From the IMG/VR virus record IMGVR_UViG_3300031539_000004, positions 32,001 to 96,000 of that record: a stretch of DNA of 64,000 nucleotides, one strand, 5' to 3'. Under the pieces are notes generated by a model that was not told where the DNA came from, did no database searches, and saw only the letters and a list, made by a program, of their open reading frames with translations. The DNA is from a virus. The position numbers were made by a program, and so were the translations under genes. Positions 2,983-62,189 of the stretch are shown piece by piece. The stretch's first letter is position 1, and every line of letters starts with the position of its first letter.

Positions 2983-3465
2983 ATGAGCCTCGAACGCAAG
3001 ACCCCGATGCGGCGAGACGGCGAGGGGGCGCGGAAGTTCGCGAACCAACGGTCGTCGCTGAGTAATGGCGGATCGAACCTGAAGCGGACCCGGATGAAGC
3101 CGAGGTCGGCGAAGCGGTCGAAGGTCATGGCCGACGACCGGGTGCCGTACATCCAGTCCTTGATCGAGGCGGGCGTCGGGTGCGAGATCGGCCCGATGCT
3201 CACCGAGGCAGCCTCTCTGTTGGCCGCTGAGGGCATCGAGGTGCGATGCGGGGGCCACATCGAAGGGCTGCATGAACGGCGCAAGCGGAGCGCTGGGGGC
3301 TCGCTGACGGCCCGCGAGAACCTGATCCCGGCGTGCAACTGGTGCAACGGGCTGGTCGAGGACGAACCTCGGGTGGTGCGGGAGCTGTTCGGCGTCGCGC
3401 TGGTCCTTCGACCAGGGGACGCCGACTACGACCGGATGGGCGCTCGGGCCGATCGGGGGCTGTGA
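2983..3465 (+). CDS. HNH-like nuclease / phage protein
   Basis: HERRKRSAGG...NLIPACNWCN; basic N-terminus. Confidence 0.6.
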   Translation: MSLERKTPMRRDGEGARKFANQRSSLSNGGSNLKRTRMKPRSAKRSKVMADDRVPYIQSLIEAGVGCEIGPMLTEAASLLAAEGIEVRCGGHIEGLHERRKRSAGGSLTARENLIPACNWCNGLVEDEPRVVRELFGVALVLRPGDADYDRMGARADRGL

Positions 3466-4010
3466 TGCCGTCCGGCCGGCCGAAGACACCGAAGGCGCTG
3501 GTCGATTCGATCCTCGCTGATCTCGAGGAGCCGATCTCGGCGGCGATCGCTGATCTTCATCCCGATGCCGGCGACCCGGTGGCGCTCGCGAAGACGGTCC
3601 TGGCGACCGAGGTGTTGCAGATGATGGTCTGGCAGGTGGTCGAGGGGGCCAGCTCGGCCGACTGTGGGCAGCGGCTCGCCGACGCGGTGACCGAGCTCGG
3701 GCTGATGGCCGAACGGCTCGAGGCGGCGCAGCGGACGATCCGTCGGGTGGAGAAAGGCCTTCCGGGGAAGAAGGAAGCGGCGGCGGCGATGGAACCGCAA
3801 GCGCAGCTCGAGGCGATCGGCGGGCTGATCGCGGCGAGGGTGCCGCACGAGTTCCGTGGCCGTGAGCATGAGCCGATCGGCGCGGTCGCGCTCGACGTGC
3901 TCGACAAGCGGTTGCCGGGGCGTGACCCTCGGGGGTTGCTCGCTTCGGAGGGGTGGCCTGGCCGGCGCAAGGCAGCGAAGACCGAGTCGATCGAGATGCC
4001 GGGGCGCTGA
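3465..4010 (+). CDS. Hypothetical protein
   Basis: TGATG coupling to upstream ORF. Confidence 0.55.
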   Translation: MPSGRPKTPKALVDSILADLEEPISAAIADLHPDAGDPVALAKTVLATEVLQMMVWQVVEGASSADCGQRLADAVTELGLMAERLEAAQRTIRRVEKGLPGKKEAAAAMEPQAQLEAIGGLIAARVPHEFRGREHEPIGAVALDVLDKRLPGRDPRGLLASEGWPGRRKAAKTESIEMPGR

Positions 4011-22780: not shown

Positions 22781-24358
22781 ATGCATTGGGAACTGCTCCA
22801 CGGCGACTGCCTCGCCGAGATGGCGAAGCTCAAGGACGGGTCCGTCGACGCGGTGGTCACCGACCCGCCGTATGGGCTGAGCTCGCCCCCTGACATCGCT
22901 GAGGTGCTGCGGCACTGGCTGGCCGGCGAGACCTACGAGCATCGCGGGAAGGGGTTCATGGGCCGCGAGTGGGACTCGTTCGTGCCGGGGCCGGCGGTGT
23001 GGGCCGAGGCGATGAGGGTCCTGAAGCCGGGCGGTCACGCCGTCGTGTTCGCGGGGACCCGGACGATGGACCTGATGTCGATGGCGCTCCGACTCGCCGG
23101 CTTCGAGATCCGTGACACCCTCATGTGGCTGTACGGGCAGGGGTTCCCGAAGTCCCACAACGTCGGCAAGGCGGTCGACAAGATCCTCGGGGCCGAGCGC
23201 GACGAGGAGCTGGTCCCGACGAGGGCCGGGAACGCTGAGCGGCGAGGCGAGGGCGACCAGGGCGCGACGTATGGCGATTCGCACGGCGGGTTCACGTCGA
23301 TCTCCGAGCCGGTCACCGAGGAGGCCGCGGCGTGGGAGGGGTGGGGCACCGCGCTGAAGCCGGCGTGGGAGCCGATCATCCTGTGCCGGAAGCCGATGGG
23401 GCAGACGACCGCGGCGTCCGTGCTCGAGCATGGGACGGGGGCGATCAACATCGACGGCTGCCGGTTGGGCGGTGAGGTCCCGCAGGTGACGCAGGGCAAG
23501 GGCGCGCTCTTCGACGGGTTGAAGGAGACGGCGTCGACCGCGCCGCAGCAGTCGCACCCGCATGACGCCGGCCGGTGGCCGACGAACGGTGCGCTGTCGC
23601 ACTCCGAGGGCTGCGAGCTGGTCGGCACGAAGGAGGTCGAAGGAGCGCCGGGTACTCGGTGTTCGTTCTGGCCCGACGAGTGCGAGGGCCACGGGCACGA
23701 GCGGGCGCAGTCGGGCGTGACGAAGCACGGGTCGCCGCCGCCGGGATGGGTGCCGCCGGGGATGAAGAAGGTCTCGACGGGCACGCACTACCCGGCCACG
23801 CGCGGCGAGGGCGGGATCGGCAACCCCGGCCATGCCGGCCAAGAGGGCCTCGAGGATCAGCAGCCGAAGACGGAGATCGTGGAGGACTGGTCGTGCGTCG
23901 AGGGTTGCCCGATCGCGATGCTCGACGCGCAGACCGGTGTCTCGGGGCCCGGCTACTTCCCTCCGGTGCGCCAGGCCGGCACCAAGAATGTGTACGGGAC
24001 GTGGGCGTCGGTCGACGCACCCGAGAACGAGCGGTTCACGACGCCGGGTGGCGGGTCGAGGTTCTTCTACTGCGGGAAGGCGTCCCGAGTGGACCGCGAC
24101 TACGGGCTGCCGGCCGGCGAGGAGAACAAGCACCCGACGGTGAAGCCTCTCGATCTGATGAGGTGGCTCGTCCGGTTGGTCACCCCGCCCGAGGGGACGG
24201 TCCTCGATCCGTTCACCGGCTCGGGGTCGACGGGCGCGGCGTCGCTGCTCGAGGGGTTCGACTTCGTTGGCTGCGAGCAGGACCCCGAGTTCGCCGAGCT
24301 CGCCCGCCAGCGGATCGGCAAGGCCGCCGAGTCTGGACATCAGGCCAGCCTGTTCTGA
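22781..24358 (+). CDS. N6/N4 DNA methyltransferase with long variable region
   Basis: GDCL, VTDPPYGL, WLYGQGFPKS, HPTVKP, LDPFTGSGSTG. Confidence 0.95.
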   Translation: MHWELLHGDCLAEMAKLKDGSVDAVVTDPPYGLSSPPDIAEVLRHWLAGETYEHRGKGFMGREWDSFVPGPAVWAEAMRVLKPGGHAVVFAGTRTMDLMSMALRLAGFEIRDTLMWLYGQGFPKSHNVGKAVDKILGAERDEELVPTRAGNAERRGEGDQGATYGDSHGGFTSISEPVTEEAAAWEGWGTALKPAWEPIILCRKPMGQTTAASVLEHGTGAINIDGCRLGGEVPQVTQGKGALFDGLKETASTAPQQSHPHDAGRWPTNGALSHSEGCELVGTKEVEGAPGTRCSFWPDECEGHGHERAQSGVTKHGSPPPGWVPPGMKKVSTGTHYPATRGEGGIGNPGHAGQEGLEDQQPKTEIVEDWSCVEGCPIAMLDAQTGVSGPGYFPPVRQAGTKNVYGTWASVDAPENERFTTPGGGSRFFYCGKASRVDRDYGLPAGEENKHPTVKPLDLMRWLVRLVTPPEGTVLDPFTGSGSTGAASLLEGFDFVGCEQDPEFAELARQRIGKAAESGHQASLF

Positions 24359-31642: not shown

Positions 31643-32130
31643 CCGGCCCGTTCCGGGTGGTCGACGGGGTGGGCCACGTCGGCGACCGGGCGTTCCCGGT
31701 GTGGGAGGTGGACGACCGGACCTCGCAGCCGTGGTCGCCGACGCTCGGGTTCTGGATCCGGTGGGTCAACGGGTGGGCGGCGCTCGTCCGGTGGCCGACC
31801 GTCCCGACGGGCGACGACCGGTTGGATCCGCCCGGTGAGCGGTGCGTCCTCGAGCGGGGCGCGGTCGGTCTGGTGAAGCAACGACGATCCGTCTACGACG
31901 GCGAAGGCCCCGACGCTGCTCGGGTGTTCACGGAGCGGTGGTCGCGGCCCCCCGAGATCGGGCTGACCGCCGTCGAGGCGCTGGCGGTCCTCGCCGAGAC
32001 GGAGGGGTTGGAGCAGCCGCCGTGGATGGAGGGCCGTCCGTTCACGGGTTGAAAGCGCTGGTCACGGCGTTGTTTCCCACAGACCCCCGGTGTAGTTGAT
32101 CCAGCTACACGGTGGAGGTACGTTGTGCCC

Positions 32131-36288: not shown

Positions 36289-36474
36289 TCAGCCGCGGCG
36301 GATCTGGCGGCGGGCCTTGCGGGCGAGGCGGCGGCCTCGGCGGGTCTTGGGGGTGGGGGTGGCGACGGCGAGGGCGTAGCCGATGGCCGCGCCTTTGGCG
36401 TTGAGGTTCGGGATGCGTCCGGCGGCGGTCCACCTCGGGAGGCTCGGGGCTGCGATTGCGGTGCTCCACTTCAT
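36289..36474 (-). CDS. Small basic hypothetical protein, leaderless
   Basis: TACAGT-N7-ATG with operator 36485-36501. Confidence 0.55.
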   Translation of the reverse strand: MKWSTAIAAPSLPRWTAAGRIPNLNAKGAAIGYALAVATPTPKTRRGRRLARKARRQIRRG

Positions 36475-36499
36475 GTCCCGAACTGTAGCATAGAAGGCT

Positions 36500-39400
36500 A
36501 CGGCGATGTGTCGGGTTTCGGGGTGGTGGCCCGGCTGGTGGCTCGGCGGCGTCGGGCGAGCTCGAGGCGGTCGGGAGGTTCCCGTCAGGTTCGTTGAGGT
36601 TCCGTCAGGTTCTCGGGAGGTTCGTCAGGTGCTCGAGCTCGGCCGGCTGGCGGCAACCGCGGGGCGTGACGGCTCGGGCGGCTCGGCGACGGACTGCTAG
36701 CCGGGATCGCAGCAGTTTCGCAGCAGATCGCAGCAGTTCCGGTGCGCCGGCAGCAGTTCTGCTGCGTTTGCTGCCCGGCCGGTGCGTGACCGGACCGCTC
36801 TGAGCGGTTGCCGGCCAGGGCGGCGAGCTTCGCCGAGGTGGTCTCGTGATGGTCTCCGGGGGTTCGTCGGGGGTTCGTCGCCGAGCTCGGGGATAACGGG
36901 GGCATAACGGGGGATGATCGAGTGATGCGCCTGGCGTCCGCTGGTCGCCCCGGGGCCGGTTGGGCGGTGATCGGGCGGGAGGCGGCCCTCGAGGGCGTAG
37001 ACGGGCGCTGAGGGGCCGATCGTCGGCTCCTGGCGGCGGCCAGCGGCGAGCATCGTGCCAAGCATCGTCGGCATCGTCCGAGCATCGTCCGAGCATCGTC
37101 GGGGATTCTGAGCGATCTGGCCTGGCCGGCGCGCCTCCTGGCGACTCCCTGGCGACTCTCGGGGGGTCGGGACGGGCCGAGGAGCGTGGAACGACCCGAC
37201 ATCAGTCTCGGGAGCCCTGGCGACCAGGGCGAAACGGGCGGGTCTGCGGCGGCCTCGAGCCTCCTGGCCGGCTGTCCTGGCATGCTCTCGTATGCGCTGG
37301 TCACGGTCCGTTTCTGAGCTCGGGAGTCCTGGGATACTGCGGGCTCCCTGGCGACTCCTGGCGCGACTCCCTGGCGGGAGCACGGGATGATGTGGGGAGC
37401 GGCGAGATCATCGGGGGCCTTGGCGTGGGCCTCGGGTGAAGGCGGGGTCCTGGCCGGCCGGCGCTCGAGCTCGAGCCGGCAGCCAGGGGGGAGTACAGAG
37501 AGCCCTTACAGGCCCGTGACCTGCGGACATGCCGGCACTGAAGATTGTCCGAAGTCGGGCAGTCGGACCTCGGTGGCGGCGAGCTCGCGGTCGTCGGGCG
37601 AGCAGCGTGGAAGGCAGTGGAACGCAGCACGACGCAGTAGAACGCAGTGGAACGCAGTGGAACGCAGCGAAGTTGGTGCCCTGGCAGCGGTTCTGCTGTC
37701 GAGCAGGCGGCCTGGCGGCCACGATCGCCGCCATGAGCGGGGCGGGGGCCTCGGGCGTGATCGGGCGGCGGCCCGCCTCGAGGGGCACACGGCGGCGTTG
37801 TGCGTCGGATCCGGGCCGATCCGTGGCGGCCTGGCGGCGTGGAGCGCGCCCGGTCGCCTGGCGGGGAGTGGTTCTTCTGGTTCCCGGGGCGAGGAACGTG
37901 ACGAACCCGACGAACCCGGCGGGGCGTGGGCGTGAGCTGGTGGGCCTCGGGGCGAGCTCGGGCGGCCGTCGTGTTCCTCGTGTTCCTGGCCGGCGAACAC
38001 TCAACGACACAACGCCGTGACCAGCGCATATGCCGGCCTGGCGGTGGCGATATGCCGGCCCTGGCGGCCGGGAGTGTTCCCGGGAGTTCGTCGGGTTCTT
38101 GGGAGAAGGACCCGAGGATCGTGACGGCTGGCGCTCGGTGAGGTGGGCCGCCTGGCGGATCCGGGTTTGCCCTGGCCGGCTACTCGAGCCGATTCTGTCC
38201 GGCCTGGTGTCCTCGCGTAACCGCTGGTCAGGGGACAGAAATGGGACTCCTTGGCCGGCGTGTTGTCCGCAGTGGTGGTTGCCGGCAGGTGGCCTGGCTG
38301 GCGTCGATCGAAGGAGCTGGCCTGGCTGGCGGCGTGAGGTGGCCGAGGGCGTCGGGGCGGCGCTCGGGCGTGATGACGCTCGGGGTGGCGCACGGCGGCA
38401 CACGGGCCGTGATCCGGGGGCCGTGGCGTGAGCTGGCCGGGCTCGGATCTGCGCTTGAGCCGGCCAGGGCGGCCAGGCAGAACGGGATGACGTGAGGTAC
38501 CTGCGGCCAGGTCTCGAGCCAGGAGGCGCGCCAGGCAGTCGCGCCGAGCTCGGCCGGCCAGGGCGTAACCGCTGGTCAGCGTCCGTTTCCGACAGGGAGA
38601 ATCGGGAGGCTCGCGCCAGGTCGTTTCCCAGGGGGCCGGCCAGGGCGAGGAGCGTGGGATGGAGTGGAACGCAGTGGGGAGCAGCGTGGCGGCAGTTGCG
38701 GGCGGGCTCGGCCGACTGTCGGCGCGACTGCCTGGTCAGGGTGCATAACCGCTGGTCACGGTGCAGAAACGAGGGTGTCGGCGACTGCGGTTTCGAGAGG
38801 CTGAAACGGCAGTCGCCAGGAGGGCGCGCTCGGCGTCGATCGTGGGGCCTGGCGGCTGGGTTCCCGGCTACCAGCTCGAGGGGGCGGCGGCGGGCCGTGC
38901 CAGCTCGGGGCGGGTGATCGGGCGTGGCGTGGCGCTCGGGCGCGTACGGGGGCCGTGAGGGGCTGATCCGTGGCGATCGTGGGCGCGGGTGGCGGCCTCG
39001 GGGGTGGTCGTCGCCGATCCGGGGGTGTTCTCCGGGTGTTCTCCCGGGTGTTCTCCCTGGTCGGGCGAGCTCGGAGCCATCGCCGAGCCGCCACTGAGCC
39101 AGCCACTGAGCCAGCCGCTGACCTGCGGTTATGCGTTTGCCTGGCCGGCGACCTGGCCGGCGATGGTCGTCAGATGGTTCGTTGATGGTTCCGTCGGGGG
39201 TTCGTTGCGGACGCTGGGGGCCGTTTCGGCCAGCGTCGGCCAGCGTCGGCTCGAGCTCGGCGCGACTGTCGAACCCTGTGCATAAGGGCTGGTCACGGTG
39301 CGTTTCTGGCCGGCTGGTCGGGGGTGTCGCGACTGCCGCGACTGTCGGGGTGCCAGCACCCTCCGGAATTGATGGTCGGGGAATTGATGGATGCTCGAGG

Positions 39401-40050
39401 ATCCATCGATTCCGCCCTGGTGAGCCGTCACGGTCAGCGGTTGCTGGGGGCTGCTGGCCGGCGGAACTGCAACGGACAGCGGTTGCGGCTGACAGGGCGA
39501 GCTCGGCCGCGTTGCTAGCGTGCTATCAATTCCCGGCCTGGTCGGCGGCCAGCAGGTTCCGGGGCGGCACCACTCATCGACGGTCCTGCGCTCGGGCGTG
39601 GTGGGCGTACAAGCGTACCGGTCGCCATTCGGGGCTGGTCGGGCGTGGCGTGGGCCTCGAGGGCGTCAGCGGCGATCTCGGGCCGCCTGGCGGGGCGTTG
39701 AGTGGCGGGTCGAGGCGGCGTTGAGTGACTGAGCGGCCTGAACGGCGGTGCGGGCGTTGAGGTCGTTGAGTGACTGAACGGGCCTCGTGCTCGGGCGTGA
39801 GGCGGGCGGGGGCGGCTTGCGAGGTCTTGAGCCGGCGCTCGTCCCGCTCACCGGGGCAGGGTTTCCCTCGGTCGGCCGCCGCCGCCCGAGGTGAAGCTAC
39901 CCGACGGGGCGAGCTTGGGCGATCGGGTTGCCGGGGAAGGGTGCCGGGGTGTGACAGGCTGACAGGCTGCCTGTCCATAACCGCTGGTCACGGGCTTGCG
40001 GTGGGGGTGCTCGAGGGTGTCGCGACTGTCGGATCTGACAGGCTGCGGGG
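36500..40050. repeat. Gene-free tract of multiple short 10-12 bp tandem-repeat clusters and dispersed TAACCGCTGGTCA motifs
   Basis: No ORF with credible codon usage or RBS; repeats listed in findings. Confidence 0.8.
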
Positions 40051-55735: not shown

Positions 55736-57382
55736 CTACAGATCGAACAGGCTGGATTGCTCGCCCGGACCGCCGTCGGTGGCGGGGTCCAGCTTGAGCC
55801 GAGGGGTGATCGGCTCGGCGAAGGTCTGCAACCCGAGGAGCGGCTCGAGGACCGCCCGAGCCAACCCCGGCGGGACCGCGTTCCCGATCTGTTCGAACTG
55901 CCTCGACCACGTCCCCTGCACCGGGTAGTCGCGCCGGAAGCTCTGAAGGGCCAGCGCCTGCCACGGCTGGATCCGCATCGCGCCCTCCGACCGGCCAGGG
56001 AAGTCCGGACGTCGCCCGTCGTTCGCGTGGTGGCCGCCGGGCCGGAACACCCTCGGGTCGCACGCCAACGTCGTCGCCGGCCGCTCCTCGGCCCACTCGC
56101 CGCCCTCCGGGGTGTCGGTCGCCTCGGTCGCGTCGATCGTCTCGAGCCGCTCCCGGTCGGCGCGCGGGTCGACGTTCTTCGGGTGCTCCTCGCCGGCCGG
56201 CTGGAACACCATGTCGTCGGCGGCGTGACCGAAAGCGATCGTCGGCGCGGGCTGGTCGCCGGTCCGCACCGCGGCGTTCGCTTGGCGGTCGGAGCGAAGC
56301 TGCCACTGCGACCCGGAGAGCGCGGTGAACGTCGGAGCGGGCTGCTCGGTCGGGTCGATCGTCTGAGCGTCCTCCCGGGTCCCGCCCGGCTTCCAGTCGC
56401 GCCCGGTGTTCAGCATCGCCCCCTCGCCCGGGTCGTCCTCGGCGAGCTCGCCGTCGTCGGGCGGGTACACCTGCCACGACCGGGCCTTCTCGGTGAGAGC
56501 GAACGCCGGCTCATCGATCCCGCGCAGGTCGCGCTCGCGGTACTCGCCGCCGTCGTCGCGGTCGTTCAGCCTCGGGAACCCGACCCTCGAGCCGGGCTCC
56601 GGTTCCCAATCGCCGGCCTCCTGCGCGTCGGCGTACACCTGCCGCGACCCGGAGCCGCCGTCGAGCGGATCCGCCGGGCCGTTGTGGTGGCGCGACATCA
56701 CCGAAGTCGACGGCCTGGTCGTGAGGCCCCAGCCGAGCGCTTCGGCCATCGTCACCCACCGAGCTCGGGACCCGGCCCCCTTCTTCGAATGGGTCGGCTC
56801 CGGGGCCAGCCAGTCCTTCGGGCCGCGCTTCGCCATGAGGATCGCCCGCTCACGGGTCTGCGGGACCCCGTAGTCGGCGGCGTTGAGCACCCCGGTCCAC
56901 ACCGAGTACCCCCAGCCGGCGAGCACGTTCGCCATCGCCTTCCACAGCGGGAGGACCCTCGGGACCTGCTCGCAGGCGATCCACTCGGGCTGCATCAGCC
57001 AGGCCCACCGGAGCGGTTCGAGGACCAGCTTCGACCGGTCGTCGGTCCAGTCGCCCTCGGGATCGACCCACCCGTCGGTGCACGCGGCGATCGCCCGGCG
57101 CAGGTCGCCGATGTCATCGAGGCCCTTCTTGTGGCCGGCCATCGAGAACCCTTGGCATGGCGGCGACCCGATGAGCCCCTCGATCGGGCCGAGGGCGTCG
57201 GCCAGGGCACGGATCTGGTCGTCGGTCACCGCGGCGATGTCGGTGTGCCACGTCCGGTGCCCGGCGGCGTACCGGGTGGCGGCGGCGTTGTCGTCCCACT
57301 CGAGGCCGAGGACGTCGGTGCGGCCCAGCTCGAGGAGGCCCTCATCCCATCCCCCCGGTCCTGCGAACAGGTCGATGATCAC
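55736..57382 (-). CDS. C5 cytosine DNA methyltransferase
   Basis: DLFAGPGG, GSPPCQGFS, CEQV, YGVPQTRER, QIGNAVPP. Confidence 0.95.
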   Translation of the reverse strand: MIIDLFAGPGGWDEGLLELGRTDVLGLEWDDNAAATRYAAGHRTWHTDIAAVTDDQIRALADALGPIEGLIGSPPCQGFSMAGHKKGLDDIGDLRRAIAACTDGWVDPEGDWTDDRSKLVLEPLRWAWLMQPEWIACEQVPRVLPLWKAMANVLAGWGYSVWTGVLNAADYGVPQTRERAILMAKRGPKDWLAPEPTHSKKGAGSRARWVTMAEALGWGLTTRPSTSVMSRHHNGPADPLDGGSGSRQVYADAQEAGDWEPEPGSRVGFPRLNDRDDGGEYRERDLRGIDEPAFALTEKARSWQVYPPDDGELAEDDPGEGAMLNTGRDWKPGGTREDAQTIDPTEQPAPTFTALSGSQWQLRSDRQANAAVRTGDQPAPTIAFGHAADDMVFQPAGEEHPKNVDPRADRERLETIDATEATDTPEGGEWAEERPATTLACDPRVFRPGGHHANDGRRPDFPGRSEGAMRIQPWQALALQSFRRDYPVQGTWSRQFEQIGNAVPPGLARAVLEPLLGLQTFAEPITPRLKLDPATDGGPGEQSSLFDL

Positions 57383-58309
57383 GGGGCCAGGATAGGGAGC
57401 TCATCCCATGTGCGCCCGTCCAGCTCGCGGCCGGCTTCCTTCTTCCCGACCCGGATCACGCCGAGAGGGGAGTACTCGTCGGCCTCGTCGCCGTCGATCG
57501 GTCTCCACTCGCCCCACTGCTTGAACAGGAACGGCACCGACCACTGGACGCAGGCGTCACGGATCCGGCGCGGCCAGTCGGGGTTCATCGGCCGCGCTGA
57601 GGTGCCCGACTCGCCGCCAGCGATGACCCACCCGATCCGGTTGCGCGACCACTCGTACTCCGACTCGGCGCGGGCCTCGTCGGAGATCCGGCGCAGCCAG
57701 GGGCCGAGGTCGACCGCCTCGAGGAGCGGCTCGCAGGACAAGAACCTCACCGGGGCGGGCACCTCGAGCAGCGCCGGGATCCGGGTGTCGGCGCACTCCT
57801 GGTTCTCGACGGTCGTCCCAACCCACGCGTTCGACGGCCACCCGAGCTCGGGCCGATGGTCGTCGCAGGTCATCCCGAGCGGAAGCGAGAACGACGCCCG
57901 GCAGGTCGGGCAGGCGTAGTTGATCCACCGGTCGGGGACCATCCCCAGCACGTTCTCGGGGCGCTTGGTGAGCAGCAGCCAGTCGAGGTTCGGGGTCTCG
58001 GCGATCAGCTCCCACAGCCGTTCCCGATGCTCGGCGAGCTCGGGCCGGTCTTCGAACACGTCGGCCATCGACGCGCAGAACACCCGCTGGCGCACCCCGG
58101 CCTTCGCCGCGGCCCGATCCCACCGCCGAGGGTCGTTCCAGTGCTTGTCGCCGAAGAACTTCCGGTCGGCGTTCTTCCCCCACTCGGTCCCGAACCGGTG
58201 CGCGAGCGTTTCGGCGTAGCAGTGCTGGCACGCCGGCGAGACCCGAGTGCAGCCCCACCACGGGTTGAAATGTGTGGTCAGCCCACTCAATTGCTGTGTT
58301 CTCTCCCAC
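57379..58309 (-). CDS. DUF5131 (gp37-like, radical-SAM-related) protein with +1 frame break after codon 14
   Basis: VGENTAIEWADHTF in one frame joins NPWWGCTRVSPACQHCYA...FCASMADVFE...LLLTKR...FLSCEPLL...GGESG in the next. Confidence 0.9.
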
Positions 58310-58853
58310 GGTTTCCCTCACCTCCATCTGCGGGGCTAGGCGCGAACCTTCCCCGCTCGTCGCGGCGTCGCTCGCGCGGCTGCCGTGCCCGTTCTCGGGC
58401 GTGATGACACTTCGTGCAGACAGCCTCTACGGCTTCGTGGTGCTCTGGCGCGTAGCCGAGGAAGTGGTCGTATTCGTGGCGTCGGTCGGACCCTCGGTGG
58501 TCGCAGTCGCAGCACGCCACCTCGTCAGGATTGGGCAGGACCCCGACGTTGACGAGGTGGTTGACGCGGCCTCGTGCCTGCAGCCGGTCGTCATCTCGGG
58601 CGGTGACATAGCGGCGGCCAGGAGCGGGCGGGTCGCGCCGTTCGTACCGGTCCTTGGCGCGCTGGCGTCGGCACGGCCGGCACAATGCCGCGAGGCCGTC
58701 GGATCGGTTGCGGTCGCTGCCGAAGGCCGAGCGTGGTTGCCAGCCGCATCCCCCGCACCACTTCTCGCCGAGCTCGAGGTGGGATGCGTACTCCTCGTGG
58801 GAACATCCGATCCGGGCGGCGGCGGTCTTCGTTGCGCCATCAGGTGATCCCAT
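58287..58853 (-). CDS. HNH endonuclease
   Basis: KWCGGC..LCRPC Zn motif; CCDC..HEYDHFLGY..VCTKCH. Confidence 0.8.
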   Translation of the reverse strand: MGSPDGATKTAAARIGCSHEEYASHLELGEKWCGGCGWQPRSAFGSDRNRSDGLAALCRPCRRQRAKDRYERRDPPAPGRRYVTARDDDRLQARGRVNHLVNVGVLPNPDEVACCDCDHRGSDRRHEYDHFLGYAPEHHEAVEAVCTKCHHARERARQPRERRRDERGRFAPSPADGGEGNRGREHSN

Positions 58854-59063
58854 GCGGGGACCGTACCTCTGTTTGTCCACTCGATCGTTCCTTGAGGCAG
58901 TCGGGGCAGAGGTCGTCCAGCCCTGGCTTCGGTCGTCGCCATCCGGCCTCGAGGGCGAGGTCGCGGGCGGGGATGCAGCCAAGCGGCGATGACCGGCCGA
59001 AGCGTCGCCCGCACCCGTCGCACTGCGTTTCCCAGCGGCGCATGCCGCTCACCGCCCGACAGC

Positions 59064-59291
59064 TCACGGCATCTGCGTGGTCGGGTCCGTCGCCTTCAGC
59101 CGGGTCCGTTCCTGCTCGGCGGCTCGGCCGGCGTACTCGGCGACGTGGGCGAGGGCGGTGTCGTCGTCGTCGGCGTGGAGCATGAACTCCTGCCGCATGA
59201 TGCGGCGACCGGCGACGGGGCGACCGTCGGGTGAGCGGGCCACGGTGGTGACGTTGACCTCGATGCGGTACCGGGTGGATTCATCAGCCAT
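59064..59291 (-). CDS. Hypothetical protein, leaderless
   Basis: TACGGT-N7-ATG; operator 59302-59318. Confidence 0.6.
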   Translation of the reverse strand: MADESTRYRIEVNVTTVARSPDGRPVAGRRIMRQEFMLHADDDDTALAHVAEYAGRAAEQERTRLKATDPTTQMP

Positions 59292-59338
59292 GCCGGGGAC
59301 CGTAGCCTGCGAGGCTACGCGCATCCAGCATCGGGCCA

Positions 59339-59378
59339 GAACGACGAAAGGCCCCCGAGGCCCGAAGGCCCCGAGGGC
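59339..59378 (-). terminator. Intrinsic terminator
   Basis: GCCCTCGGGGCC-TTCG-GGCCTCGGGGGC 12-bp stem with UUCG loop followed by CTTTCGTCGTT. Confidence 0.8.
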
Positions 59379-61206
59379 GGTCCGTGATGGCGAGGCGGTC
59401 ACGCCGACCGAGATGCGACGCCGGGGGCAACCCAGCTTTGCGAACCCGATCCGGTTGTTCCTCACGTCCGGTGCTCCGCTCGACGCCAGTTGATCAGGCT
59501 GGCGGCGTCGGGCCGCGTGAGTCCCCTGGTGGTTTGTCCGGCACCTCGGCCGGCGTCACCGCCTCGCAGGTTGTGCTCACTCCCCGGCCCCGTCGGCCGC
59601 GGTTCGTAGTCGGTCCCAGCCTTGCGGCGTGCCGACCCGGCCCTTGGTCCTGTCGGGCGTGGTAGTGAGCTGAGTGCCACCGGGGGGAGTTGAACCCCTG
59701 CCCGCCCCTCTCGGGGCGTCCCGGCCTCGGGGGCCGATCCGCTTCCGGCTGCCGTGCCGTGGCGTGAGTGAGTGGTTGCAGCCCATCATCCGCCGGGGCC
59801 GAGCGGTCGCGCTTGGCGACTTCATTCCCGGGTTCGGGCTTCGCTGCTCCGCCACTCGGCGGCGTGGTTCTCGTATCACCTTCTCTCGCTCGTTGGTCGG
59901 TTTCGATTCTGGCGGCGCTGCTCGGCTCGAGGCCTGCTGCTGCTCGTTGCGAAGTCTGCTCCGGGGTTTATCTGAGGAGTCGGAGCGGCCCCCTCCCGGT
60001 CGCGATGCCGGGCCCGTTTGTTGTCGTTTGCCAGAAGGGGGCGGGTCTCCCCCCGACCGCTTCGCCGTATCCGGCTCGTCGGTGCTAGTCCGTGGCGGCG
60101 CTGCCTTGCCCCCGAGGGGGCCGGCGCTGCTCGCCTTGCGATTGCCCAGGGTTCCTCGTGGCAGCGAGGCCGACCGAGGAGCTCCTCGATCGGGCCAGCG
60201 GTTATCTCAGTTTCCCCGGTCGCTTGGTCTGCGATCCGGCACCCTCTCGGGTGGCTGGTCCCTACCTCATGGCCGCCCGTTGTGGGCGGCGCGTCATTGA
60301 GTGGTTCAAGTGATCCGACCCCGTGGCCGCTGCTTCCAGCCGAGGCTGGGTATGCGGTTCGATCGTCGGGCTTGGCCGAGCTGGCTGCCACCAGCTCGAC
60401 GCCTCCGTTTTACCCGCCGGTTACCCGGTTAGTGGGAGCCCCCGGTACTACTGACCGTTCCCGTGGGCTAGAGGTCCATCGCCGTCTGTTGCGCCTCGGC
60501 GAGTCGTTCGACTGGCCGAGGTTGTTGCGAGCTTGCCGGGGTTCGGTGGCTTGCGCCACCCGGTCCCGGCGACCGGTTCGGAGCGTCGTCGGCGTTGGCC
60601 TCTGCTCCTGTTCGGCAGCCTCGTTGTGAGTGTTCGCCCGAGGGGGTTTCCCTCAACCGGCGCAACGCTCCGGGGCTGCCTATGTCGGTTCCAGCTCACC
60701 GCGCTCCTCCCGCTATCCCGGCGCTGACGCTTCAAAGCTTTCATGCTTTCCGGGCTCGGGCGCTTCGGTGAGCTGTCCCGTAATCCTTCACCCCGAGGCT
60801 GCGTTGAGCCGTTCGGATCCCGCTCCGATTCGCCGAGGCTTACGCCTCGAGGTGGCTGATCGACGCTCAAGCGGGCCTCCCGCCGGTTGGCGGTGCTCGT
60901 TCTCGTTGGTTGCTCGGGTGCGCTGTGGGGGTGACTTGGCCTGCTGGCCTGACGCCACCCGCTCCGCTTTGCCTCACTCGCCCTGCCGGGCTCGTCCGTT
61001 AGTCGCTCCGGCGGGAGGCCCGCTTGAGCGTCGATCGTTGCTTTGTTCGCCGTGTCCGGCTGCGGTTGCTCCGCTGCCCGAGGCTTGCCCTCGTAGTCTC
61101 ACCAGTTGGTCCGGTGCCGACCTTGCGCCGCTCGAGCCCTTATGGCTTCGGCCTCTCGGCCTGGCGACTCGCCCCGGGTCTTGTGGGGGCTTCCCGTCTT
61201 GCTTAC
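59340..61206 (-). ncRNA. Candidate large structured non-coding RNA (or RNA precursor), ~1.87 kb
   Basis: Promoter and terminator bracket a region lacking credible ORFs, dense in helices and strand-specific GNRA tetraloops. Confidence 0.7.
59675..59763 (-). ncRNA. Class II tRNA-like module (89 nt) inside the large RNA
   Basis: Acceptor GCCAC/GTGGC, D-loop AGCCGGAA, anticodon arm TCGGC-CCCCGAG-GCCGG, 6-bp variable arm with GAGA loop, T-loop TTCAACT, A73. Confidence 0.6.
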
Positions 61207-61212
61207 GAGGAC

Positions 61213-61306
61213 AACGTAACTTCCCCGCTGTAGCCGAGTCAACTACAAAGAGGGGTTCCGAGGGAACAACGCCCTGACCAGCATCTATGTAGCCGAAGAA
61301 GCTACA
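61213..61306 (-). promoter_or_regulatory. Sigma70-type promoter of the large RNA with two operators
   Basis: TTGACT(61242-61237)-N18-TACGTT(61218-61213); GTAG-N9-CTAC at 61230 and 61289; TGACCAGC motif at 61275. Confidence 0.8.
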
Positions 61307-61329
61307 GCTCGGCGTGGGATCGCCGAGGA

Positions 61330-62112
61330 TCAGGCGTCGCTGGCGTCCTCGGGATCGCCCTCGGGCCGGCCCGGCCACAGGTCGGCGTAGGGGTGAGCGT
61401 CGCCCACGATCAACGCCTCGCCCTCGCACACGCCCGTCAGCGTGAGATCGACGTGCTCCCACGTCCACCACCCGCCGCACCGGTCGCAGCCCGCACCAGC
61501 GCCGTCAGGGGCCTCTCGCAGGTCATGGCGCAAGGCGTCCAGCAGCGCCACGAACTCGGCGTGGCTGTCGACCCGCAGCCCCGGGTGGTCGCCGTTGTAC
61601 GGCTGAGTGAACAGGACCGGCACCGTCTCGCCCATCGCCTCGAGCGCCTCGTAGTTGTCGACCGAGTCCTCGAGGAACACGTCGGTCTCGACCGCACCCT
61701 TGTCGTGGCTCACCGTCACCGAGTCGAACGGGACCCCGAGCTCGCCGAGCCAAGCGAACGTCGACCGCCTGGCCGTCGCCTCCACCGTCGGGACGTTGCG
61801 CGACGTGACGAGGTGCAGCTCGTCGCCCGCCGAGGTGATCGCCAGCATCGCTTCCACCGCGCCCTCGATCGCCGGCGACGGCCCGAAGATCACGCCCGCC
61901 TCGATCCCGGCGACGAACTCGGCCATCCACTCCTCGGTCGTGAGGCCCCAGTCCTCCCGGTGGAACGACCAGACCGTCGGCTCGCCGAGCTCGGCCCGGT
62001 CATGGCCTCGGGAGACAAGCCAGTCGCGGAACCGGTCCACGAACGGGTAGAGCACCCCGTCTACGTCCATCCCCACCCTGAGCTTGTGACGCAGCTCATC
62101 CCCACCCGCCAT
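61330..62112 (-). CDS. HAD-family 5'(3')-deoxyribonucleotidase (NT5C-like)
   Basis: GMDVDGVL, LVTSR, DVFLEDSVDN, FTQPYN. Confidence 0.9.
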   Translation of the reverse strand: MAGGDELRHKLRVGMDVDGVLYPFVDRFRDWLVSRGHDRAELGEPTVWSFHREDWGLTTEEWMAEFVAGIEAGVIFGPSPAIEGAVEAMLAITSAGDELHLVTSRNVPTVEATARRSTFAWLGELGVPFDSVTVSHDKGAVETDVFLEDSVDNYEALEAMGETVPVLFTQPYNGDHPGLRVDSHAEFVALLDALRHDLREAPDGAGAGCDRCGGWWTWEHVDLTLTGVCEGEALIVGDAHPYADLWPGRPEGDPEDASDA

Positions 62113-62189
62113 GCCAACCGAGCGTAGGCGCGCAACGACCCCGGGGTTCCGCGAAGGAACCACCGGGGCCGCCGCAACTGACCGCCAGG

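Follow-up and report, generated by a model that had tools for sequence, protein, structure and literature searches.

RNA1, the subject of this study, is a non-coding stretch of ~1.87 kb on the − strand (61206-59340) of a 64,000-nt viral DNA window (IMG/VR record IMGVR_UViG_3300031539_000004, positions 32,001 to 96,000; C2:30112-94111 in a 3.87-Mb, 168-contig assembly), and positions given below are those of this window unless stated otherwise. On balance, RNA1 is probably a dedicated transcription unit for a non-coding RNA that consists of a series of modules, each folding by itself, and that is processed and acts in trans. Its promoter is homologous to the other copies of a promoter repeated along the phage, and two of its modules, a 5′ domain and a domain that we call M3, are conserved with compensatory changes.

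We infer the ends and the function of the transcript, as well as its processing and trans action, the latter two because of the established specificities of ribonuclease (RNase) III and RNase P/Z. The operator-bearing promoter, which is of the standard type of this phage, would fire at ~61206, and the transcript, with GTA and not ATG at its +1 position, would be unusable as a leaderless messenger RNA (mRNA). The primary transcript of ~1.87 kb would comprise the 5′ domain, a domain closed by a 29-bp stem, central helices, M3, an element resembling transfer RNA (tRNA), and a GC-rich end hairpin. Host RNases may cut the transcript at two sites, with an RNase III-type activity acting on the 29-bp duplex and an RNase P/Z-type activity on the tRNA-like element, and this cleavage would release smaller, stable structured RNAs acting in trans early in infection. 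The released RNAs would probably serve as RNA or protein-binding scaffolds, alongside RNA2, a paralog beyond the window end, whose core looks built for self-pairing.

Few RNAs are as poorly understood as the large structured phage RNAs of the GOLLD and ROOL type. Two of the RNA modules at this locus, the 5′ domain and M3, are uncatalogued, and the layout of the locus suggests that a dedicated transcript of 1.9 kb can be assembled from such modules together with a tRNA look-alike and a stem of the processing type, next to a paralog.

Non-coding Character and Strand-specific Structure

The RNA1 stretch is non-coding, as claimed by the initial annotation, which was made from the sequence alone. 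Position-specific GC content is flat from ~61330 to 59330 (maximum minus minimum, 0.02-0.17), compared with 0.4-0.6 in the flanking genes, and third-codon-position GC reaches 0.9-0.98 in the genes adjoining RNA1. None of the six open reading frames (ORFs) of at least 100 aa inside the stretch, on either strand, matched Pfam, and the lengths of indels between RNA1 and its homologs are not multiples of three. The − strand is rich in A (22%) and poor in T (8.8%).

The structure signals are specific to the − strand. GNRA loops on stems of at least 4 bp occur seven times on this strand, compared with 1.23 ± 1.13 in dinucleotide shuffles, none of 500 of which reached seven, and not once on the + strand. 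The preference for GNRA tetraloops on the − strand noted in the initial annotation was thus borne out, and its individual hairpins were all located (61161-61150, 60849-60834, 60560-60545, 60253-60240, 59718-59703, and 59628-59619). Folding z-scores against shuffles were −3 to −6.8 in 300-nt windows from 61050 to 60150.

It is very improbable that there is no RNA gene here at all and that the stretch is a DNA-level element (an origin or a protein-binding array) or a decayed spacer, with hairpins arising from GC-rich composition. Such an element would fit with the similar z-scores of both strands in the structured part, with a 29-bp perfect inverted repeat that could equally be a DNA feature, and with the presence of another large non-coding, repeat-filled block in this phage (36.3-40.05 kb). 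However, GNRA loops favor one strand, tandem iterons are absent from the RNA1 stretch, compensatory pair changes are seen in M3 and the 5′ domain among phages of 54-70% GC, the promoter is precisely placed with its ATG lost, and the identical sequence is found in metagenomes of several studies.

Promoter and Predicted Start

The features of the promoter region are as follows.

61284..61308, − strand: hairpin like a degenerate promoter palindrome, just past the stop of the NT5C-like gene (2-mismatch match to the promoter pattern)
61229..61248, − strand: palindromic core, resembling an operator, of the promoter repeated along the phage (alignment with the other copies)
61242-61237, − strand: −35 TTGACT, with an 18-nt spacer to the −10
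61218-61213, − strand: −10 TACGTT (comparison of 11 promoter copies)
61206, − strand: predicted +1 G (same comparison)
4946, 13446, 28899, 32090, 43168, 48448, 53085, 55290, and 55741: other promoter copies in the window

The promoter TTGACT-N18-TACGTT with a start at ~61206 had been proposed in the initial annotation to share the operator of the early gene cassettes, and both the coordinates and the type proved correct. The motif around the −35 is a palindrome with 10 copies in the window, where none is expected, and these are always co-oriented with genes. The repeated promoter was found along C2 from ~27 kb to 117 kb of this 126-kb contig, the same architecture was seen in a relative contig of IMG/VR (L027), and the pattern was absent from 400 other genomes of the same order.

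In eight of the nine copies in the window other than that of RNA1, a TAnnnT −10 is followed after 6-7 nt by ATG, and judging from this layout most phage operons appear to be leaderless mRNAs. The triplet at +1 is ATG in eight protein-gene copies, GTA in RNA1, and GTC in RNA2. The GTA at the predicted start of RNA1 is direct sequence support for a transcript that would be made yet not translated, and a leaderless-mRNA promoter would turn into an RNA-gene promoter simply through loss of the +1 ATG. No internal promoter copy was found inside the RNA1 unit. The hairpin at 61284..61308 may be a terminator or an operator half-site. An "inverted" upstream element is shared by both RNA promoters; it also precedes the protein-gene promoter at 32090 and is thus not specific to RNA genes.

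The 5′ Domain and the 29-bp Stem

Two features make up the 5′ part of RNA1.

61037..61206, − strand: 5′ domain, ~170 nt (pattern scan and alignments)
60858..61036, − strand: perfect 29-bp long-range stem, 61036-61008 with 60886-60858, around 121 nt (100% complementary inverted repeat)

RNA1 and RNA2 align only over their first ~170-200 nt (blastn, 76% over 110 nt). A two-block pattern drawn from this common part retrieved three genuine loci from the metagenome collection, namely L037 and the mutually identical L033 and L036, and nothing from two other collections, of viral contigs and of genome contigs; two further matches to the pattern were due to chance. The three loci come from phages of 60-65% GC with a different promoter, and the 5′ domain again lies right at the predicted transcript start. 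In four RNAs with two promoter types, it begins at or within ~11 nt of the predicted +1.

In the four-way alignment of RNA1, RNA2, L033/L036, and L037, 68 columns are invariant; the conserved blocks do not change their order and are separated by small hairpins. In RNA1, the blocks are retained, additional small hairpins are present, and two hairpins differ in stem sequence. The non-coding length headed by the 5′ domain is ~0.55 kb in L037, ~1.65 kb in L033, and 1.4 kb in RNA2; the RNA of L037 is compact (~545 nt) and ends in a classic terminator.

The 29-bp stem is kept in both the minimum-free-energy and the centroid folds (z = −6.8), and at its position the homologs show a hairpin of variable length (7-18 bp). 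Perfect duplexes such as this one of 29 bp are typically recognized as substrates by RNase III. The stem is a candidate RNase III-type processing site, at which cleavage may occur.

A giant cis-acting 5′ leader or regulatory RNA, whose terminator would control the four downstream genes (59291-55736) and whose 5′ domain would protect the polymerase from premature termination in a put- or boxA-like manner, is quite unlikely. The constant position of the 5′ domain at the predicted start would suit such a leader, as would the lack of a standard promoter copy between 61248 and 55741 and the fact that long untranslated RNAs are natural targets of Rho. In contrast, a TAnnnT-N7-ATG signal, i.e., the leaderless layout of this phage, lies 40-50 nt past the terminal hairpins of RNA1 and RNA2, so a separate start for the downstream genes is probable. 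In addition, the 75-codon ORF is without the Shine-Dalgarno sequence that a read-through transcript would need, and M3 and the related core described below are conserved as RNAs beside unrelated genes.

Center, Module M3, and 3′ End

The remainder of RNA1 contains the following features.

60338..60857, − strand: central helix-rich region (z = −3 to −4.6; single-sequence evidence)
60849-60834, 60560-60545, and 60427-60416, − strand: GNRA hairpins of the central region
60775-60766/60701-60692 and 60680-60674/60620-60614, − strand: long-range pairs of the central region
60048..60337, − strand: module M3, a multi-helix RNA domain of 290 nt common to the IMG/VR contigs L060 and L071
59674..59763, − strand: tRNA-like element, a cloverleaf with a long extra arm and a T-loop-like hairpin (ARAGORN, 90-nt "tRNA-Arg CCG")
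59339..59378, − strand: terminal hairpin with a 12-bp GC stem and a UUCG loop, presumed intrinsic terminator

Both long-range complements of the central region had been listed in the initial annotation and were found at the same sites. No homolog of this region was found.

M3 was found in L060 when a profile of the single RNA1 sequence was run against all fetched loci (RNA1 positions 870-1159), and L071 was found through a pattern drawn from the RNA1/L060 alignment. The nhmmer matches (E = 4.4e-7 for L060 and 1.4e-8 for L071) sit within non-periodic, A-rich stretches of ~2 kb. The three-way alignment keeps several single-stranded blocks and at least four hairpins with different stem sequences, and the consensus fold of the three sequences has 66 pairs, with compensatory changes in 12 and few broken. 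Since the alignment gaps are of 7, 8, 10, and 2 columns, a shared reading frame is ruled out. The covariance model R2 scores 145 bits at M3 of RNA1, which is itself in the model, so this score is not independent. A further match of R2, to L055 (19.8 bits), was rejected as strongly periodic coding DNA.

The element at 59674..59763 is tRNA-like, not a tRNA. It has an acceptor-stem mismatch and C at positions 8 and 33, where U is conserved in tRNAs, and the Rfam tRNA model did not match it at E ≤ 10. The only tRNA-clan match was a sub-threshold one to mascRNA (59676-59734; 21 bits compared with a threshold of 42.5), which was also its best sub-threshold match in Rfam. Its T-loop-type motif has two matches in the window, where 0.13 are expected, and similar T-arm-like motifs lie 3′ of the core, on the RNA strand, in RNA2, L033, L047, L057, L058, and L062. 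The element resembles MALAT1/mascRNA and the stable RNAs of the phage T4 tRNA region in being a tRNA-like fold within a long non-coding transcript, with a possible RNase P/Z cut; unlike that of MALAT1, it lies ~330 nt before the 3′ end and not at the end.

The UUCG-capped terminal hairpin is present as annotated, with a weak U-tract, and RNA2 ends in a look-alike UUCG hairpin with a better U-run. The region of the RNA1 hairpin (59350-59380) and a segment within the tRNA-like element (59705-59735) show 84% complementarity over 31 nt. This could allow an alternative pairing, or it may be meaningless, both segments coming from the same near-palindromic GC-rich word.

One Giant RNA or a Chain of Modules

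The initial annotation left two options, a much larger ornate RNA or a polycistronic precursor of several RNAs; the precursor, or modular, option has gained support and the single giant RNA has lost it, as the modules are conserved separately. That the full 1.87 kb forms a single architecture which acts intact, i.e., a larger analog of GOLLD or ROOL, is rather unlikely. A single promoter and a single terminal hairpin do bracket the stretch with no promoter copy in between, GNRA loops are found along most of its length, and there are long-range helices, such as the 29-bp stem and a 27-nt inverted complement pair (59390-59416/59541-59567). However, the modules recur in different combinations in unrelated phages, without common neighbor proteins, as if reshuffled, and the RNAs of 0.55, 1.4, and 1.65 kb headed by homologs of the 5′ domain differ in their contents. 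The susceptibility to RNase III expected of a perfect 29-bp duplex and the lack of structural excess in the 3′ third also speak against one intact molecule. We favor the modular precursor because different phages, with different combinations of modules, have conserved the 5′ domain and M3 independently of each other, because the 29-bp duplex and the tRNA-like element are placed between modules or at module borders, and because the 3′ third has neither excess structure nor a homolog.

Several observations weigh against the modular transcript, or against parts of it. RNA1 belongs to the 5′-domain family (RNA1, RNA2, L033/L036, and L037) and to the M3 family (RNA1, L060, and L071), and these comprise only three and two independent lineages, respectively. 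Folding exceeds that of dinucleotide shuffles from 61050 to 60150 and not in the 3′ 0.8 kb, where z-scores are near 0. Homologs with compensatory pairing, by which the initial annotation proposed to judge the RNA, exist for the 5′ domain and M3 and not for the center or for the 3′ 0.8 kb, of which no homolog was found in a profile search of the fetched loci. The evidence for the center (~0.5 kb) and the 3′ end (~0.8 kb) comes from a single sequence, and the tRNA-like element is the sole supported part of the latter; its own fold energy is not better than that of shuffles (z = −0.55). The tail of the terminal hairpin is weak (~5 U in 11 nt), and the hairpin was unlisted by a simple terminator scan. 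The sequencing runs carrying the RNA1 sequence are DNA metagenomes, with no RNA run listed. Four DNA metagenome runs from several studies are identical over the RNA1 stretch, so there is no within-lineage variation for testing the rest of the fold.

RNA2 and the Core RNA Family

The following RNAs contain the core that is conserved next to the 5′ domain.

66621-68038 in window-equivalent positions (L010 8733-10150), + strand: RNA2, 1.42 kb, non-coding, non-periodic, and A-rich
Myrna 3226-3591 (L069 3001-3366): core
Dandelion ~23225-23470 (L070 ~3001-3250): core

RNA2 has a promoter of the same type as that of RNA1 and consists of the 5′ domain, a member of the core family, a T-arm/acceptor element like that of a tRNA, and another ~0.9 kb of non-coding RNA. 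It holds the only copy of the core in this genome. The core (256-400 nt) directly follows the 5′ domain in RNA2, L033, and L037 and is characterized by an invariant 18-nt single-stranded block and a conserved multi-helix junction (model R1, 137 positions, 27 pairs). The 18-mer alone was found in 27 IMG/VR contigs; four matches in bacterial genomes all lie inside coding sequence and hence are due to chance. By blastn, 206 mycobacteriophage records contain the core, which lies in gaps without annotation in Myrna, Phabba, Dandelion, and others (cluster C). RNAalifold on 17 members gave 33 pairs, 26 of them with compensatory changes, and R1 scored 123.7 bits for RNA2, 100.8 for Myrna, and 84.4 for Dandelion, the last two being outside the training set. 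A loop 8-mer of the core is self-complementary in nearly all members and covaries, with five palindromes, that of RNA2 being distinct.

RNA2 thus ties the locus to an unannotated RNA family of more than 200 cultured cluster C mycobacteriophages, and the core family is a tractable laboratory system (phages of Mycobacterium smegmatis) for asking what such RNAs do. Rfam 15 gave no family match in the core-bearing loci apart from a transfer-messenger RNA (tmRNA) downstream in L047. This tmRNA gene (L047 10221-10616, − strand; Rfam 57.7 bits, with a tag peptide given by ARAGORN) lies ~0.8 kb downstream of the core RNA on the same strand.

RNA1 shares its promoter with RNA2 and its 5′ domain with the core-bearing RNA2, L033, and L037, but is itself without the core. 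A profile hidden Markov model of the core (nhmmer) found nothing in RNA1 at E ≤ 10, and R1 found nothing in the window; with filters off on 59000-61500, its best score was 7.3 bits, i.e., noise. Judging from these searches, RNA1 falls outside the core family of the cluster C mycobacteriophages. No self-pairing loop was found in RNA1 itself.

In L060, a core RNA lies on the opposite strand ~6.9 kb from M3, which mirrors the layout of RNA1 and RNA2; in these two phages, the long M3-bearing RNA and the core-bearing RNA are divergent and ~5.4-6.9 kb apart. L071 is without most of the core, so we give this pairing little weight. It is highly doubtful that RNA1 and RNA2 are two halves of one phage RNA system, in which divergent M3-bearing and self-pairing core-bearing RNAs would share a 5′ domain giving the polymerase resistance to termination, would mature through tRNA-like and RNase III-guided cuts, and would come together as a large particle, made of RNA only or of RNA and protein, that is needed early in infection. 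Unconstrained duplex prediction for RNA1 with RNA2, and for the L060 pair, gave meaningless whole-length duplexes that were no better than reversed controls.

Comparison with Known RNAs

None of the families named for comparison in the initial annotation (GOLLD, ROOL, OLE, tmRNA, RNase P RNA, and introns) was matched by RNA1 with cmscan. At the gathering thresholds of Rfam 15, the only match in the whole window was one tRNA, elsewhere in it, and at E up to 10 there was no match to GOLLD (RF01998), ROOL (RF03087), or OLE (RF01071) in 59000-61500. RNA1 had no Rfam match to tmRNA, RNase P RNA, group I/II introns, or known ribozymes, and ARAGORN found no tmRNA in the window. A Twister-sister match in RNA1 (15.4 bits compared with a gathering score of 34; E = 9.8) was discarded as noise. 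RNA1 gave nothing by blastn against cultured phages, where the flanking 12 kb had trivial matches only, and against 60 related genomes it gave only chance matches of 26-60 nt. No description of RNA1, RNA2, or the core RNAs was found in the literature, where a catalogue of ~8,500 viral RNA candidates (PMC10690425) may cover them in part. A large structured phage RNA near a tRNA-like sequence is of a known kind; the families described here are outside Rfam 15.

GOLLD and ROOL are reported to form RNA-only homo-oligomers (PMC12286853). They resemble the RNAs of this locus in being phage-borne, in having hundreds of nucleotides of dense conserved structure, and in their association with a tRNA or tRNA-like element, and the core of RNA2 (not RNA1) has a covarying self-complementary loop. 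In contrast, RNA1 matches neither model, whichever threshold was applied, has 2-3 times their length, and is built of modules that occur separately elsewhere. Precursors from ribosomal RNA (rRNA) operons are likewise long, untranslated, structured transcripts with a perfect long-range duplex bracketing a domain, but RNA1 is without rRNA similarity, its duplex encloses only 121 nt, and its cleavage is a prediction.

Phage Setting and Neighboring Genes

The genes next to RNA1 are as follows.

61330-62163: NT5C-like gene, upstream of RNA1
59291-55736: four genes downstream of RNA1

The element surrounding RNA1 is a high-GC phage with terminase, replication, and lysis genes; its source habitats are acid-sulfate soil and marine sediment. 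It encodes a large terminase, a replication initiator, DnaB-type and other helicases, an endolysin-like protein, several DNA methylases, and DUF2303 and DUF5131 proteins. No relatives of the NT5C-like protein or of the 75-aa ORF, both neighbors of RNA1, were found in IMG/VR, and tblastn of the locus proteins against all RNA-bearing loci gave no common neighbors, except in the relative contig L027.

The genome had been described as otherwise filled wall to wall with ORFs. This does not hold, given RNA2 past the window end and a 3.8-kb non-coding block at 36290-40050, directly after the large terminase gene. The block is without codon periodicity and without an Rfam match, is packed with short tandem direct repeats of ~10-12 nt each, and contains ~7 copies of a motif also present 25-35 nt upstream of the phage promoters. 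Possible roles of the block are an origin, a packaging site, or a protein-binding array. On the − strand, an HNH/endonuclease VII-like ORF (58287-58982) overlaps the start of the DUF5131 gene (57379-58290).

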